Origin: a virus
Lineage: Duplodnaviria; Heunggongvirae; Uroviricota; Caudoviricetes
Virus record (IMG/VR): IMGVR_UViG_2740892423_000003
Length of the DNA: 5,377 bases
Reading direction: 5' to 3' (one strand)
Shown here: one piece after another, positions 1 through 5,377 of the stretch
How the letters are laid out: each line of letters begins with the position of its first letter
Numbering within the stretch: position 1 is the first letter of the stretch
The notes under the pieces: generated by a model
Told to the model about the DNA's origin: nothing
What the model saw: only the letters and a program-made list of their open reading frames with translations
The model's database searches: none
Program-made: the position numbers and the translations under genes

Positions 1-638
1 GAGAAACGCGCCACACTCTGGCTGATGGACGCAATCTGAGCCTCACCGCTTACCCCCGCCTTAACCAGTGCGCTGAGTGACTCGCTGGTCTGGTCAAACG
101 TCAGCCCTGCCGCCTGCCCGGCTCTGGACAGGACCAGCATGCGATCTGCCGTCAGTCCCGCCTGATTGCCGGAAAGGACCAGCGTTTTGTTGAAATCGGA
201 CAGGGTTGAGTTGCCCTGATACCAGGCATACGCCAGCGCACCGGTCGCCACCGCCAGCGAGGTGGCCCCCACCATCGGCAGGGTGATCGCACCGGCAAGC
301 CCCCTGAACATGGGGATCATCCCGCCGAAGGAGTCCTTCACCTGCCCCCCCTGTTGCAGCAGGATCAGCCACGGACTTTGCCCGCCTGCAAGCTGCGTGG
401 CCACGTCGGTGAACTGTGCAGGCAGCATACGCATGGCGGCTTTATACTGCCCGACGGAAATCCCCGCTTTCTGTGCAGCCAGCGCCTGTCGGCTCAGCGA
501 CTGTTCAACGACTGCCGCTGTTTTTTTCGCATCACTTTCCGTACCGGAAAAATGACGCCTGACTCTGGCCATCTGCTCGTCAAATCTGGCCGCATCCAGA
601 CTCAAATCAACGACCAGATCGCCTACCGGTTCAGCCAT
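1..638 (-). CDS. H: Tail tape-measure protein H, N-terminal part only (about 212 codons); the gene runs off the window at position 1
   Basis: Reverse-complement of 600..638 translates MAEPVGDLVVDLS from an ATG at 636..638, preceded by AGGAGGAG. The frame stays open to position 1 and spot translations (GLAGAITLPMVGATSLAVATG, ALAYAWYQGNSTLSDFNKTLVLSGNQAGLTADRMLVLSRAGQAAGLTF) match lambda gpH as I recall it. It is absent from the ORF track because no stop lies in the window. Confidence 0.92.
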   Translation of the reverse strand, partial: MAEPVGDLVVDLSLDAARFDEQMARVRRHFSGTESDAKKTAAVVEQSLSRQALAAQKAGISVGQYKAAMRMLPAQFTDVATQLAGGQSPWLILLQQGGQVKDSFGGMIPMFRGLAGAITLPMVGATSLAVATGALAYAWYQGNSTLSDFNKTLVLSGNQAGLTADRMLVLSRAGQAAGLTFDQTSESLSALVKAGVSGEAQIASISQSVARF

Positions 639-1065
639 ACCGGACTCCTCCTGCGATCCCTTCTGATACTGTCATCAGCATTACGTCATCCTCCGTCATG
701 TCCGCCACATCCGGGGAAGCGGGGATAACTTCATTCCCGTCCGGGCCAAAGCGGACACCTCCGGCAAGCCCTGCCGCTTTCTGCATCAGCACATCATCTT
801 CAGGCTCTTCGTCAGCCTCGCGCCGGTTCAGCAGACTGAAATCCAGCGGATGCATATCCGGATCGCTGAAAAACAGGCTGAGCACGGTGTACGTCAGCCC
901 GGAAAAGTGCATATCCAGCAGAACATCATGAAAATAATGGGTACTGTAAAAGCGGTGCCAGTCGGCATACTCCGTGGATGACATCCCGGCAAGCATGGCA
1001 CGCCAGTCGGGTCGCCCCATCTCACGCGCCAGTTTCAGGGCAAAACTCAGCTCACCGTCGAACAC
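631..1065 (-). CDS. T: T-frame portion of the G-T tail assembly chaperone fusion, reached by -1 programmed frameshift from G; not an independently initiated gene
   Basis: The 144-aa ORF 631..1065 is in the -1 frame relative to G and overlaps the G 3' end at the slippery heptamer. Its translation (…FDGELSFALKLAREMGRPDW … GGVRYG) matches the lambda T region as I recall it. The track's initial M is a GTG inside the slip site, not a true start. Stop TGA at 631..633 overlaps the H start. Confidence 0.85.
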   Translation of the reverse strand: MFDGELSFALKLAREMGRPDWRAMLAGMSSTEYADWHRFYSTHYFHDVLLDMHFSGLTYTVLSLFFSDPDMHPLDFSLLNRREADEEPEDDVLMQKAAGLAGGVRFGPDGNEVIPASPDVADMTEDDVMLMTVSEGIAGGVRYG

Positions 1066-1469
1066 TTTCCCGCAGAAACAGGCTCTGCAGGCCCGGCGTC
1101 CTCTGCCTGTTCAGGTGCATCATTCACCACAAACTCATACATACCGGACAACCGGTACACCACGTTTTCAGCATGAGAAATTGCCTCTGTGGGCCAGGTG
1201 GTAAGCACTTCCTGCTCAATCTGTTTAACGGCTTCATTCATGGACGGCTGCGTTGTCTTCTGTGGATGGTTATGCCACAGGGACATCGCCACCACAAAAG
1301 CACCGGTTCTGATGGCGTCTTCCACAGTAAACTTCCGGTTGCTGTCTGACTCCGCCTGTTCTGCCTGCCGTTTCATCAGGGCGAGATGCTCAATACGCTG
1401 CAGGGCTGACAGTTCAGAAAGCGTGACGGTCACGCCGTTATGTTCAAATGATTCGGTTTTCAGGAACAT
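1047..1469 (-). CDS. G: Tail assembly chaperone G
   Basis: 140-aa ORF MFLKTESFEHNGVTVTLSELSALQRIEHLALMKRQAEQ…SAGKCSTVS, same length and near-identical to lambda gpG as I recall it. ATG at 1467..1469 is preceded by GGAGAA. Confidence 0.95.
   Translation of the reverse strand: MFLKTESFEHNGVTVTLSELSALQRIEHLALMKRQAEQAESDSNRKFTVEDAIRTGAFVVAMSLWHNHPQKTTQPSMNEAVKQIEQEVLTTWPTEAISHAENVVYRLSGMYEFVVNDAPEQAEDAGPAEPVSAGKCSTVS
1065..1071 (-). promoter_or_regulatory. -1 programmed ribosomal frameshift slippery heptamer G GGA AAG (G to G-T)
   Basis: Plus strand 1065..1071 reads ctttccc, i.e. GGGAAAG on the coding strand, sitting on the Gly-Lys codons of …SAGKCSTVS* nine codons before the G stop. This is the classic lambda G/GT slip position. 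Confidence 0.85.
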
Positions 1470-1484
1470 CGCTGATTCTCCGGA

Positions 1485-2225
1485 TTAACTGGCGGTGACG
1501 TTGATTTCTGCAACCGCAGCAAACTCACCATTACCGGATACGACCGGAATGTTGACCTTGCCTGCAGCAACACCTTTCACGGTGATGGTCATACCACTGA
1601 CCGACACGGTGGCTTTTGTTTTATCCGCAGACACTGCACGGAAGCTCTTGTCGGTTGCGCCTTCCGGCTGGAATGCCACGGTCAGCGTGGTGCTCTTCCC
1701 TTTCACCACCGAGGTGCTGGCAGGCGTCACGGTCATGCCGGTTGCCGCTGTTACCGTGCTGCGATCTTCTGCCATCGACGGACGTCCCACGTTGGTGACT
1801 TTCACCGTGCGGGTGATCACTTCCTTCGCCGTCACCGCCTTACCGATACTGCTGACCCAGCCGCGGAACACATCGACCGTGCCGTTCGGGAAGCGGATTT
1901 TATAGGCACGGGTATCCCCTTCATTAAACCACGCCAGCAGCGCCTGCTGCCCCTGCTCTCCGGGCATCCACGCCAGCGTGAAGCTGGTATCTCCGGCGGA
2001 TTTCTGCCCCTGTCCGGTCGCGGCCCAGTCCGGATCTTCATCATCGAGATAACTGTCGTCATAGGACTCTGCGGTCAGTTCGCCGGGCGTCAGGTCTTTA
2101 ACTTTTGCCAGACGCGACCAGTCAACGTCTGAAAGCGGGTTCGCATAAGGGTCACCGTTCCCCTTATAAACCCACAGAGTGGTTCCGGCCCCTTTCACCG
2201 GTGCCAGAGGATTTGGTGTTGGCAT
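1485..2225 (-). CDS. V: Major tail tube protein V (246 aa) with C-terminal Ig-like domain
   Basis: The track ORF 1485..2255 contains an internal ATG at 2223..2225 that gives [44 protein letters not shown]…, matching the lambda gpV N-terminus and its 246-aa length. GAGGA lies just upstream. The longer start at 2255 would overlap U by 23 nt and add 10 non-homologous residues. Confidence 0.93.
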
Positions 2226-2232
2226 ATCGTCC

Positions 2233-2628
2233 TCACATTTCATAGGTAATGACATAAGTCAGATCGGCTGAACTCCACAGGCCCGCATCATCGTCGCGCC
2301 GGTAGTCATAGCCACTGGCCACCATACTGGTGATCAAATCTGACAGTGCCGGGATATCGTTCATCACCGGATAAATCCGGGACTCCATCCACGCATCCAG
2401 CTCTGAATCCGGCACCTGAGCAGGCAGGAAAACTTCGATATGCAGCGCCGCCTGCCAGGTATCGCTGTCCAGCTCTTCGCCCGTGTATTCAGCGCCGGTG
2501 AGATAAACGGCAATTGCCGGAAAATCTTCCTCATCAAAAACAGCGGGGCGACCATCAAAAAGCGTCGCCCCGGTGTCATGCTTCTCCAGTGCATCCAGTA
2601 CGGCTGCACGGAGTTCAGTATGTTTCAT
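2233..2628 (-). CDS. U: Tail tube terminator protein U
   Basis: 131-aa [40 protein letters not shown]…[10 protein letters not shown], same length and near-identical to lambda gpU. Its ATG (2626..2628) overlaps the Z stop in an ATGA arrangement. Confidence 0.95.
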
Positions 2629-3203
2629 CGCTTTATTACCATTCTCAGTTGATGCTGCAGCGCATAGCCCAGCTCTTTCGGAAGACGTTCACGCCGTATC
2701 CGTTCAATATTCTGTTTAAACGCCGTGGTCAGCGGCACCGCCATCGGGATTTTCACCACATCAATGGGGTAACGGTTTTTCCCGGCCACACGCTGCATGA
2801 CATGCCACCGGCCATTTTTCAGTTGCTGAATAAACGCGCCGGGAATACGACGGTTTCCCACCACAAGCACACTGCCGCCACCTTTCAGGGCTGAACGCTG
2901 CCCCTTTTTACGACGCCTGCGTCGAGACAGGACAACCCGCGCGTTACCCAGCTTTATTACGGGCAAATCCCCCCGGCTAACCCTGATTCTGGCCTGCGGA
3001 TTTTTGACCGTGGCCCTTTTCAGCCTGGCCCTTTCCTTTACCAGTTTCCGGCGTACCTTTGTCTCACGGGCAACCTGTGCCACCGACTGCGATATCGCGG
3101 ATGAAGCAACGCGGTTAATGGCCATTGCGGCGGCACCGGGCACCGCCGTTCTGCTGATACGGCTGAGGTTTTCAACGGCCTGCTCAAGACCTTTTATGGC
3201 CAT
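2625..3203 (-). CDS. Z: Tail completion/assembly protein Z
   Basis: 192-aa ORF MAIKGLEQAVENLSRISRTAVPGAAAMAINRVASSAISQS…[11 protein letters not shown], same length and near-identical to lambda gpZ. ATG at 3201..3203 is preceded by AAGGGGGA. Confidence 0.95.
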   Translation of the reverse strand: MAIKGLEQAVENLSRISRTAVPGAAAMAINRVASSAISQSVAQVARETKVRRKLVKERARLKRATVKNPQARIRVSRGDLPVIKLGNARVVLSRRRRRKKGQRSALKGGGSVLVVGNRRIPGAFIQQLKNGRWHVMQRVAGKNRYPIDVVKIPMAVPLTTAFKQNIERIRRERLPKELGYALQHQLRMVIKR

Positions 3204-3214
3204 ACATCCCCCTT

Positions 3215-3568
3215 TCAGCGGCGACGGTTAACGGCAGGCGGTACGCCCCGCCCAAGCCAGAGATGACAGCTTCCGCCATCATCCGGCGAAATCCGGTCCA
3301 CCCAGAAGTTTTCCTCGCCGATGGTCAGTGTGTCTCCACGCCGCAGCTGCCGCACCTCATCAGTCCGGACAAACAGGGACGGGCTGGAGCCTTCAACGCG
3401 CACGCCCTGTCCGGCATAGCTGATATTTTCAGGGTCATCAAAAACACCACGTATCACAGCACCTGACTGCTCACCGGATGTCATGGTGGCTGACGTTCCC
3501 ATGTACCCGCGTATCGTTTCATCGGCGCGGGCAATGGCAGCATCGAACAGGTTATCGAAATCAGCCAC
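3215..3568 (-). CDS. FII: Head-tail joining (head completion) protein FII, complete copy
   Basis: 117-aa ORF MADFDNLFDAAIARADETIRGYMGTSAT…HLWLGRGVPPAVNRRR matching lambda gpFII. The start codon is GTG (plus-strand cac at 3566..3568), preceded by GGGAGG. Confidence 0.92.
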   Translation of the reverse strand: MADFDNLFDAAIARADETIRGYMGTSATMTSGEQSGAVIRGVFDDPENISYAGQGVRVEGSSPSLFVRTDEVRQLRRGDTLTIGEENFWVDRISPDDGGSCHLWLGRGVPPAVNRRR

Positions 3569-3863
3569 AGCGCCTCCCGTTATTGCATTCTGGCCAGGCC
3601 GCGCTCTGTCATTTCGGCTGCCACACCGGCAGAGACACGAAACGCCGTTCCCGGCAGCACAAATGCCACAGGTTTATCCCGCGTGGCGTGAAGTGCATCA
3701 GTATGCAGCGTCACCAGTGCCACGACCGTGACCAGTTCAGCCGTATCCTGAATCACGGTATCCGTCTGTGCTGATACCACCTCATTTTCATGTCCGGTCA
3801 GTGCATTTTCCGGGCTGACAGACGTGTCCTGACCGGCTGCGTCATCCGTGTCATCAAGCTCCT
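3299..3863. repeat. Direct repeat copy 1 (FII 5' part + FI-FII junction + FI 3' part), ~565 bp, abutting the gap
   Basis: Aligns collinearly with 3874..4435 at an offset of 572-575 bp. I counted about 16 substitutions and one 3-bp indel by eye, about 97% identity. Confidence 0.9.
3580..3863 (-). pseudogene. FI: FI 3' fragment (C-terminal ~93 codons), 5'-truncated at the N-gap; a diverged duplicate of 4155..4435
   Basis: Translation …ELDDTDDAAGQDTSVSPENALTGHENEVVSAQTDTVIQDTAELVTVVALVTLHTDALHATRDKPVAFVLPGTAFRVSAGVAAEMTERGLARMQ*. It is ~97% identical in DNA to the 3' end of the complete FI gene, with a 3-bp indel that adds one Gln. It is cut off at the N run, so it is either a contig-end partial or a gene fragment. 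Confidence 0.75.
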
Positions 3864-3873
3864 NNNNNNNNNN
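3864..3873. other. Assembly gap: run of 10 N
   Basis: Ten consecutive n characters in the sequence, a conventional placeholder for a scaffold gap of unknown size. Confidence 0.98.
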
Positions 3874-4143
3874 TATCCAGAAGTTTTCCTCACCGATGGT
3901 CAGCGTGTCGCCGCGCCGCAGCTGCCGCACATCATCAGTCCGGACAAACAGGGACGGGCTGGAGCCTTCAACGCGCACGCCCTGTCCGGCATAGCTGATA
4001 TTTTCAGGGTCATCAAAAACACCACGTATCACAGCACCGGACAGCTCACCGGATGTCATGGTGGCTGACGTTCCCATGTACCCGCGTATCGTTTCATCGG
4101 CGCGGGCAATGGCAGCATCGAACAGGTTATCGGAATCAGCCAC
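3874..4143 (-). pseudogene. FII: FII 5' fragment (N-terminal 90 codons), 3'-truncated at the N-gap; a diverged duplicate of 3299..3568
   Basis: Translation MADSDNLFDAAIARADETIRGYMGTSATMTSGELSGAVIRGVFDDPENISYAGQGVRVEGSSPSLFVRTDDVRQLRRGDTLTIGEENFWI, then N. GTG start at 4141..4143 with the same GGGAGG upstream as the complete copy. Differences from 3215..3568 are mostly synonymous. Confidence 0.75.
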
Positions 4144-4435
4144 AGCGCCTCCCGTTATTGCATTCTGGCCAGGCCATGTTCTGTCATTTCGGCTGCCACA
4201 CCGGCAGAGACACGAAACGCCGTTCCCGGCAGCACAAATGCCACAGGCTCATCCCGCGTGGCGTGAAGTGCATCAGTATGCAGCGTCACCAGTGCCACGA
4301 CCGTGACCAGAGCAGCCGTATCAATCACGGTATCCGGCTGCGCTGATACCACCTCATTTTCATGTCCGGTCAGTGCATTTTCCGGGCTGACAGACGTGTC
4401 CTGACCGGCTGCGTCATCCGTGTCATCAAGCTCCT
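3874..4435. repeat. Direct repeat copy 2 (FII 5' part + FI-FII junction + FI 3' part), ~562 bp, abutting the gap
   Basis: Same alignment as copy 1. The repeat begins exactly at the first base after the N run and copy 1 ends exactly at the last base before it. Confidence 0.9.
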
Positions 4436-4550
4436 CTTCCAGCTCTGCCACACGGAGCGCCAGTTCTTCTTTCGTCCCCGTCAGGCTGACATCACGGTTC
4501 AGTTGCTCACCCAGCGACCGGAGACGGGCAATCAGTTCATCTTTCGTCAT
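4155..4550 (-). CDS. FI: DNA packaging / head assembly protein FI (131 aa)
   Basis: The internal ATG at 4548..4550 gives MTKDELIARLRSLGEQLNRDVSLTGTKEELALRVAELEEELDD…GLARMQ, matching the lambda gpFI N-terminus and length, with GGAGGAG immediately upstream. The track's longer ORF starts at a GTG at 4589, inside the E-FI hairpin region, and is probably not used. Confidence 0.92.
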   Translation of the reverse strand: MTKDELIARLRSLGEQLNRDVSLTGTKEELALRVAELEEELDDTDDAAGQDTSVSPENALTGHENEVVSAQPDTVIDTAALVTVVALVTLHTDALHATRDEPVAFVLPGTAFRVSAGVAAEMTEHGLARMQ

Positions 4551-4560
4551 GAACTCCTCC

Positions 4561-4591
4561 ACAGAGAGAAAATGGCCCCGAAGGGCCACGA
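4561..4591 (-). terminator. Candidate stem-loop (UUCG tetraloop) plus U-rich tract in the E-FI intergenic region; a possible partial terminator or mRNA-stabilising hairpin
   Basis: Coding-strand RNA just 3' of the E stop reads UCGUGGCCC-UUCG-GGGCCAUUUUCUCUCUGUGGAGGAGUUCAUG. GGCCC/GGGCC forms a 5-bp GC stem closed as C(UUCG)G, extendable to about 7 bp, followed by AUUUUCUCUCU. Function is inferred, not shown. Confidence 0.35.
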
Positions 4592-5377
4592 TTACGCCAG
4601 TTGTACGGAAACGAACTCATCAGGGTCAGCCAGCAGCATCAGCGGTGCTGACTGAATCATGGTGAACTCACGCGCCGGATCGCCGGTGGTCACCCAGTTT
4701 TTCGGGTAACGGGCAGAGGCGTTAATGCCTTCGCGCTGTGCGTCCGCATCCTGAATGCAGCCATAGGTGCGCAGACCGCGAGCCTGAGTGTTCCCCAGCA
4801 CCATCGTGTTGTCCGGCAGGAAGTTCTTTTTGACGCCGTTTTCCACGTACTGTCCGGAATACACGACGATGGCCACATCGCCATACATTCCCTTATAGGA
4901 CACCGCTTTGCCCAGGTCTTTTACCGCTGTCTCCAGCTCGGAATGAGAGCCGCGACGGGTATCCAGCTTCTCCCTGACGGCTTTGAAGGAACGGAACAGC
5001 GCCCAGCCTTTCGGATCGAACACGATGATATTCACCACGCCGCTGGCGTTCAGCGCGTAGGCTTCGATATCGTCGGTCGGGTCATACGTGGACTTGTCAC
5101 GCTTGCTCCACTCCGTGCTGCCGGACTGCGTGATGTTGTTCGCCGCACTGCGGCCCATATCCACCTCAACCGGATCGAAGGCTTCACCGGTCATGGTGTA
5201 TTTGCCCTTGAGCACGGCAGAAACGGCCTGCATCTCTTCGACCTGAGCAATGGCCAGCTCTTCGTCTCGCATGTTCTGCATGATGATGCGACGGCGGCGG
5301 TAAGCCGGGTCCGCCAGATTCTGCGGATCTTCATCCGGCAGGCGACGCAGGGTCATCTGCGGATTCACCTCATGCTT
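4592..5377 (-). CDS. E: Major capsid protein E, C-terminal ~261 codons; the N-terminus lies beyond the window end
   Basis: Translation …KHEVNPQMTLRRLPDEDPQNLADPAYRRRRIIMQNMRDEELAIAQVEEMQAV…PLMLLADPDEFVSVQLA* matches the C-terminal two-thirds of lambda gpE as I recall it. The frame is open to the window edge at 5377. The track's M at 5368 is an internal GTG (Val), not the true start. Stop TAA at 4592..4594. Confidence 0.95.
   Translation of the reverse strand, partial: KHEVNPQMTLRRLPDEDPQNLADPAYRRRRIIMQNMRDEELAIAQVEEMQAVSAVLKGKYTMTGEAFDPVEVDMGRSAANNITQSGSTEWSKRDKSTYDPTDDIEAYALNASGVVNIIVFDPKGWALFRSFKAVREKLDTRRGSHSELETAVKDLGKAVSYKGMYGDVAIVVYSGQYVENGVKKNFLPDNTMVLGNTQARGLRTYGCIQDADAQREGINASARYPKNWVTTGDPAREFTMIQSAPLMLLADPDEFVSVQLA

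Follow-up and report, generated by a model that had tools for sequence, protein, structure and literature searches.

Heterotype false duplication, the placement of diverged allelic copies in tandem with a gap between them, has been described by Ko et al. (2022, Genome Biol 23:205, PMC9516828), and Kelley and Salzberg (2010) are cited there on the same phenomenon. Its diagnostic signs include a read depth over either copy of about half the flanking value and discordance of read pairs. A related source of error was described by Tang et al. (2012, PLoS One 7:e52038, PMC3528712), who traced scaffold gaps to polymorphism between coexisting near-identical sequences. The biological point of reference for the locus considered here is the late operon of phage lambda, with the gene order E-FI-FII-Z-U-V-G-T-H.

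The stretch of DNA that we analysed, referred to below as the window, is 5377 bp long and carries the same stretch of the FII/FI junction on both sides of a run of 10 N. Like the cases in PMC9516828, it places adjacent allelic versions and a gap on one scaffold and contains spurious gene fragments and a false gene model. Unlike those cases, which concern diploid vertebrate haplotypes, the source here is haploid, and the versions are most likely paralogous prophage copies or mixed template. As in PMC3528712, the contig ends at the gap overlap at less than 100% identity, as expected for strain or multi-copy polymorphism, and the gap can be closed in silico. However, that study dealt with a Newbler assembly of a two-strain metagenome, whereas the window comes from an isolate draft and its boundaries suggest a de Bruijn assembler.

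Gene order, gene sizes and Pfam families (PF03864, PF14000, PF05354, PF06763, PF06141, PF06894 and PF06223) match those of the lambda late operon. Once one copy of the repeat is removed, the window is 96-99.9% identical to Escherichia coli lambdoid prophages, and no biological difference from the lambda operon is left. We consider it very likely that the repeat is a false tandem duplication, made by the assembler from two unmerged graph bubbles, and that the true locus has a single FII/FI junction.

A repeated junction at a placeholder gap

The window is the entire WGS record JRGD01000106.1 of draft assembly GCA_000754845.1, reproduced end to end; a literature search found no paper that cites the JRGD accession. 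The record is an orphan mini-scaffold made of a 3863-nt piece (the left contig, 1..3863) and a 1504-nt piece (the right contig, 3874..5377), separated by 10 N (3864..3873) that stand for a placeholder scaffold gap. It is broken within H and within E, as in repeat-derived pieces. The lambda late genes lie on the minus strand and follow, in window order, as H (partial), T, G, V, U, Z, FII, an FI fragment, the N run, an FII fragment, FI and E (partial). Of these, H (partial) through Z, the complete FII and 284 nt from the 3' end of FI fall on the left contig. On the right contig lie 270 nt from the 5' end of FII, the complete FI and a 3' portion of E (4592-5377). The complete FII (3215..3568, minus strand) encodes a head-tail joining protein of 117 aa, for which the source has PF05354 on record and annotated homologues exist. 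The complete FI (4155..4550, minus strand) encodes the DNA-packaging protein FI of 131 aa, with PF14000 on record.

Elsewhere in the left contig, the motif CTTTCCC (GGGAAAG on the coding strand) occurs at 1065-1071, where the G ORF (1047-1469) overlaps the T frame (631-1065). We take GGGAAAG to be the slippery heptamer of the programmed -1 frameshift of lambda G-T, which appears to be conserved here.

Alignment and gene content bear out the claim of the earlier note that the same junction stands on both sides of the N run. The left copy (3299..3863, 565 nt) comprises the first 270 nt of the complete FII, the spacer and the last 284 nt of FI (3580-3863), and ends exactly at the gap. The right copy (3874..4435, 562 nt) starts at the gap, on the first variable base, and comprises the first 270 nt of FII (3874-4143), the 11-nt spacer and the last 281 nt of FI. 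Aligned with each other, the copies run from gap edge to gap edge; in other words, the suffix of the left contig is the prefix of the right contig. This dovetail at a placeholder gap, seen directly in the record, is the unmerged overlap of contig ends that the earlier note had read from the exact abutment of the repeat on the gap. It also matches the arrangement used in PMC9516828 to recognize false duplication, a pair on the same scaffold with a gap between, as both copies abut the 10-N run. A match of 565 nt at 97% identity cannot have arisen by chance.

The copies differ by 19 substitutions, of which 17 are internal and 2 lie in the first three bases (3299 and 3301), and by a 3-bp indel at 3748-3750 (4322/4323 in the right copy), giving an identity of 96.6-97%. 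The indel and the approximate identity of 97% had been reported correctly before; the earlier count of about 16 differences becomes 19 substitutions, a trivial discrepancy. The differing sites are gathered in two patches. Patch a has 7 sites, at 3299..3356 in the left copy. Patch b has 15 sites and spans 3464..3769 in the left copy and 4039..4341 in the right copy. Between the patches lies a stretch of 107 nt that is identical in both copies (3357..3463, equal to 3932-4038).

An ORF of 187 codons (3580..4143, minus strand) reads through the N run and joins residues 1-90 of FII, by way of XXXX, to the C-terminal 94 residues of FI. This artefactual product of the gene caller is a spurious protein. 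A gene with exactly this fusion product is on record solely on JRGD01000106.1 (L288 1235-1798), and the FII-FI fusion ORF is absent from a collection of 15 billion proteins. The ORF is in frame because the 10 Ns and 2 leftover bases add up to 12; without the Ns, the direct junction is 554 nt and out of frame.

Natural alleles and a single natural junction

If the tandem arrangement were real, a duplication of about 575 bp would have left extra fragments of FII (5') and FI (3') between FI and FII. The geometry, with unique sequence, one copy, a gap, the other copy and unique sequence again, is formally compatible with such an event, and the ORF through the Ns happens to be in frame, but that reading frame depends on an arbitrary number of Ns. 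We compared the window with related natural loci, 287 overall, of which 251 served for matching of the repeat and 240 for the states of the differing sites, with 124 distinct alleles among them.

The natural loci, directly observed, have a single junction. No second copy of the junction was found in any of the 287 loci, and none of the 251 gave a double match to the repeat. Searched against 5426 complete E. coli genomes, the window had at least 80% of its length covered in 3134; in the best 25 of these 3134, the matching region measures 4802-4805 bp, the length left when one copy and the gap are taken out of the window. A 39-mer common to both copies occurs once per locus among the matches listed (39 stretches from the genome collection, 120 from the viral one), and the annotated loci have one FI, of 131 or 132 aa, and one FII each. 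These sequences are common: the 565-nt segment occurs at 4619 places in 3227 E. coli genomes, and the exact Z, FII, FI and V proteins are widespread, with 140-439 blocks each. Thus, in better assemblies of relatives, which are strains other than the source, the junction is single copy, as it is when a duplication is false. A large mosaic breakpoint at the contig ends was also considered and is rejected: along its full 4.8 kb, the merged sequence aligns collinearly with the natural loci, at 96-98% identity.

The distribution of the shared 39-mer drew our attention to a separate matter. In the genome collection, 36 of the 39 listed species-representative genomes (L001-L039) are not Escherichia and include Amycolatopsis, Arthrobacter, Shewanella, Pseudomonas, Neobacillus, Leeuwenhoekiella and MAGs. 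Compared with each other, the contigs of these genomes reach 99.9-100% identity along as much as 8 kb, and several have a length of about 48.4-48.5 kb. The pattern suggests contamination of many public assemblies with laboratory phage-lambda DNA.

The differences between the copies are of natural origin. All 22 differing sites are natural polymorphisms of lambdoid prophage loci; for the 17 internal substitutions and the indel, both states segregate among the 124 natural alleles, and neither copy has a private state. The indel is the natural length polymorphism between a 132-aa and a 131-aa FI, and genes of 399 nt and 396 nt are annotated accordingly in complete genomes. Ten alleles are closer to the left copy than its partner copy is, and 50 are closer to the right copy. 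Taken with the lack of private states, these closer outside relatives lead us to reject both base-calling error and divergence after duplication as sources of the differences.

This bears on two explanations. A simple unmerged overlap of one locus, with base-calling errors at the contig ends, would produce the observed dovetail; however, errors are mostly private, and here every one of the 22 sites segregates in nature, including a codon-sized indel that corresponds to the two lengths of FI. We regard its probability as vanishingly small. The earlier judgement that the differences were too many for sequencing error agrees with this, and the copies carry real variants, as falsely duplicated alleles do. 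The second explanation is the real tandem duplication, whose copies should be each other's closest relatives and should meet at a defined novel junction. Instead, the copies are not sisters, each difference between them is a polymorphism that existed beforehand, and 10 N stand where the junction should be, so that the one sequence unique to a duplication is exactly what is missing. Its counterpart was found in none of the 287 natural loci and in none of the complete-genome matches listed. A real duplication is therefore very improbable, in agreement with the earlier note, which had ranked it as the less likely alternative; the single junction of natural loci speaks against it. We would give a similarly slim chance to a heteroallelic duplication of 575 bp, formed by unequal exchange between co-resident lambdoid prophages, at whose junction the assembler failed.

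Lineage of the flanks and phase of the patches

The two contigs share a nearest relative. L258, a metagenome scaffold of 20 kb whose genes follow the normal lambda-like order, carries both flanks contiguously. The left contig is 99.79% identical to it, with a single difference at 1-3298 (at position 2682), 7 at 3299-3356 (patch a), which are all the mismatches from 2900 onward, and none at 3357-3863. The right contig does not differ from L258 at 3874-4038, has 15 differing sites at 4039-4341 (patch b; 12 substitutions and the 3-bp indel), and has 2 differences at 4342-5377 (at 4974 and 5119), equal to 2 in the 942 nt beyond the overlap. Two isolate contigs, L255 and L259, behave like L258. In three otherwise intact prophages of the same lineage (L253, L256 and L260), an IS66-family element (TnpA/TnpB/DDE_Tnp_IS66) interrupts the portal gene.

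Departures from the L258 lineage within the repeat lead to a second lineage (L272 and L275). No mismatch separates it from the left contig at 3083-3355 or from the right contig at 3914-4373; outside these two tracts it differs by 2-3%. The copies are complementary mosaics, a pattern that is plain in the alignment: foreign sequence of the L272 type is limited to patch a in the left copy and patch b in the right copy. In patch a, the left copy departs from the L258 lineage at all 7 sites; the first 6 have the L272-lineage state, and the seventh, C at 3356, matches neither L258 nor L272. In patch b, the left copy has the L258-lineage state throughout, and the right copy has the L272/L277-lineage state, including the 3-bp deletion that gives the 131-aa FI, and is back to L258 by 4374.

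Among the 240 natural loci, none has all-left or all-right states at the 22 sites. The combination of right-copy patch a with left-copy patch b occurs in 12 of them, and the reciprocal pattern (left-copy patch a with right-copy patch b), site 3356 aside, occurs in 8. As drawn, the copies are 8 (left) and 4 (right) differences away from their nearest natural alleles. When patch a is exchanged between the copies, one resulting allele is identical to 11 natural loci and the reciprocal allele is within 2 differences of nature; a reconstruction of 4805 nt swapped in this way has 3 mismatches to L258, an identity of 99.94%. Each copy is thus probably a mis-phased mosaic, and the 107-nt shared stretch is the proposed graph node. 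A swap of phase at this node appears reasonably likely.

The ends of the foreign tract point in the same direction. None of the 240 natural loci has the right-copy combination of G and C (3765/3769) with T (3802). The foreign tract would accordingly stop no more than 32 nt from the last site at which the copies differ, and a tract that stops there on a shared backbone would account for the absence of this combination. Two loci, L160 and L271, combine left-copy states in patch a with mostly left-copy states in patch b, so the left copy as drawn is not impossible in nature. A 67-mer specific to the left copy has one match in the metagenome collection, again L160, which is 95-97% identical, and no match in the viral collection. 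Overall, the most economical account is a backbone present twice, with a single tract in one of the two copies.

Alternatively, each contig may be faithful to a different prophage, and the record may be a chimeric join of modules that are not linked. This was the first suggestion of the earlier note, which took the left and right contigs to come from two different but related prophages and the head and tail modules to be possibly unlinked. In favour of this case, the two alleles are both real, several regions of this kind are often found in one E. coli genome, and mosaic alleles exist in nature, with 68 haplotype patterns among the 240 loci. Counter to this, the flanks are not of different lineages, as a chimeric join would lead one to expect; both are nearest to L258, L255 and L259, with at least 99.9% identity, and the L258 lineage carries both flanks contiguously. 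A chimera would also need two independent, adjacent and complementary tracts, both ending inside the same 107-nt stretch, as well as tract ends that coincide with contig ends, and it would have to accept alleles 8 and 4 differences from nature where swapped alleles are 0 and 2 differences away. We consider such a join quite unlikely, and the claims of two source prophages for the contigs and of doubtful linkage are not supported. The second option raised in the earlier note, two alleles in an assembly-graph bubble, is the best fit. Under a false duplication, order and orientation of the contigs are most likely right as drawn, and the spurious part is most likely only about 572 nt and the Ns.

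Contig ends, assembly and meaning of the record

The positions of the contig ends may bear on how the assembly was made. A distance of 94 nt separates the last variable site of the left contig, 3769, from the end of that contig, and the right contig starts on the first variable site, 3299. The start of the record lies 94 nt before site 95, and a variable site at that position had been predicted beforehand from k-1 = 94. There, 129 of 143 natural loci differ from L258, which has the base of the record, and the modal class of loci (56/143) has its first mismatch at site 95. For the right outer end, a variable site had been predicted at 5283, and this failed. Only an alternative rule explains that end: position 5378, immediately beyond the record, is a common C/G site (G in 85 of 209 loci) and would act as a fork. 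Given a variable-site density of 7.5%, the chance of the three end coincidences is 0.0004 under the exact rules and 0.03 if any of five rules is allowed.

Node boundaries for k of about 95 and a postulated second copy would fit three ends, one of them predicted, and the fourth only under the alternative rule. Among the natural loci, none reproduces all four boundaries when used as the second copy (the maximum is 2/4), and no sampled locus equals the proposed second copy. Inside patch b, the longest identical stretch is 89 nt, compared with 107 nt between the patches; at k = 95, the longer stretch merges alleles and the shorter does not, which agrees with one switch of phase between the patches and none within patch b. 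Two presumed conventions of Velvet would fit the record: a gap estimated at <10 nt is set to 10 N, and the sequence of a later node is added minus its first k-1 bases. A literature search did not find documentation of the 10-N convention. We see about an even chance that the assembler was Velvet-like with k = 95. That contig ends coincide with variant sites is a further point against a real duplication.

The right end of the record is also 6 nt short of a structural breakpoint in E. All homology to the intact E gene stops at one point just past the window end (equivalent to 5383/5384) in about 27 natural loci, among them L257, L261, L265, L102, L071, L091, L122 and about 20 more. Past the breakpoint come a conserved ACATGAGTCAA and then variable sequence. 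The truncated E of L257, L261 and L265 adjoins an island with a D5_N primase, SSB, a Phage_cap_E capsid, an HDPD decoration protein, AlpA and a Nu1-like protein, with DUF2971, Abi_C and AF_1680 as variable cargo. The island looks similar to a phage satellite that encodes its own capsid and sits in or next to the capsid gene of the prophage.

Looking across the entire analysis, we suggest the following origin for the record. The sequenced DNA would have held two versions of one lambda-like late-gene region, the first L258-like throughout and the second with a foreign tract of the L272 type, 0.5-0.7 kb long, over the FII/FI junction (with bounds of 3299-3769 at minimum and 3083-3801 at maximum). 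Outside this tract, the two versions would be identical or nearly so within the record. In a de Bruijn graph with k of about 95, the tract would open two bubbles (3299-3356 and 3464-3769) separated by the 107-nt shared node. The assembler may then have left the bubbles unmerged and written one arm of each, a minimum-size gap of 10 N and then the other arms, with the arms paired the wrong way round during writing. The true locus would have one FII/FI junction, with head and tail genes linked as drawn.

The source of the two versions may be sought in one genome or in two. Two strains or clones in the DNA, through mixed culture or contamination, would give the same artefact, as the outcome for graph and scaffold is identical to that of two prophages, and strain polymorphism is a documented cause of scaffold gaps (PMC3528712). 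Counter to this, the record breaks inside prophage genes at common variable sites, which is typical of prophage regions that are multi-copy within one genome, a common situation, and a second strain would, in expectation, give bubbles throughout the genome, beyond this record. A mixed template seems unlikely. We favour two copies within one genome as the likely source, and the versions would most likely be two co-resident lambdoid prophages.

The significance of the false duplication is one of data hygiene only, without biological novelty. Through its spurious bases, its fusion ORF and copies that are probably mis-phased mosaics, the record misleads counts of FI and FII copies, inference of duplication and the use of its alleles. 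As for the organism, two lambdoid late regions that are nearly identical are probably present in the strain, one of them with a short recombination tract over the FII/FI junction. Such a tract is the usual mosaicism of lambdoid prophages and would be ordinary biology.
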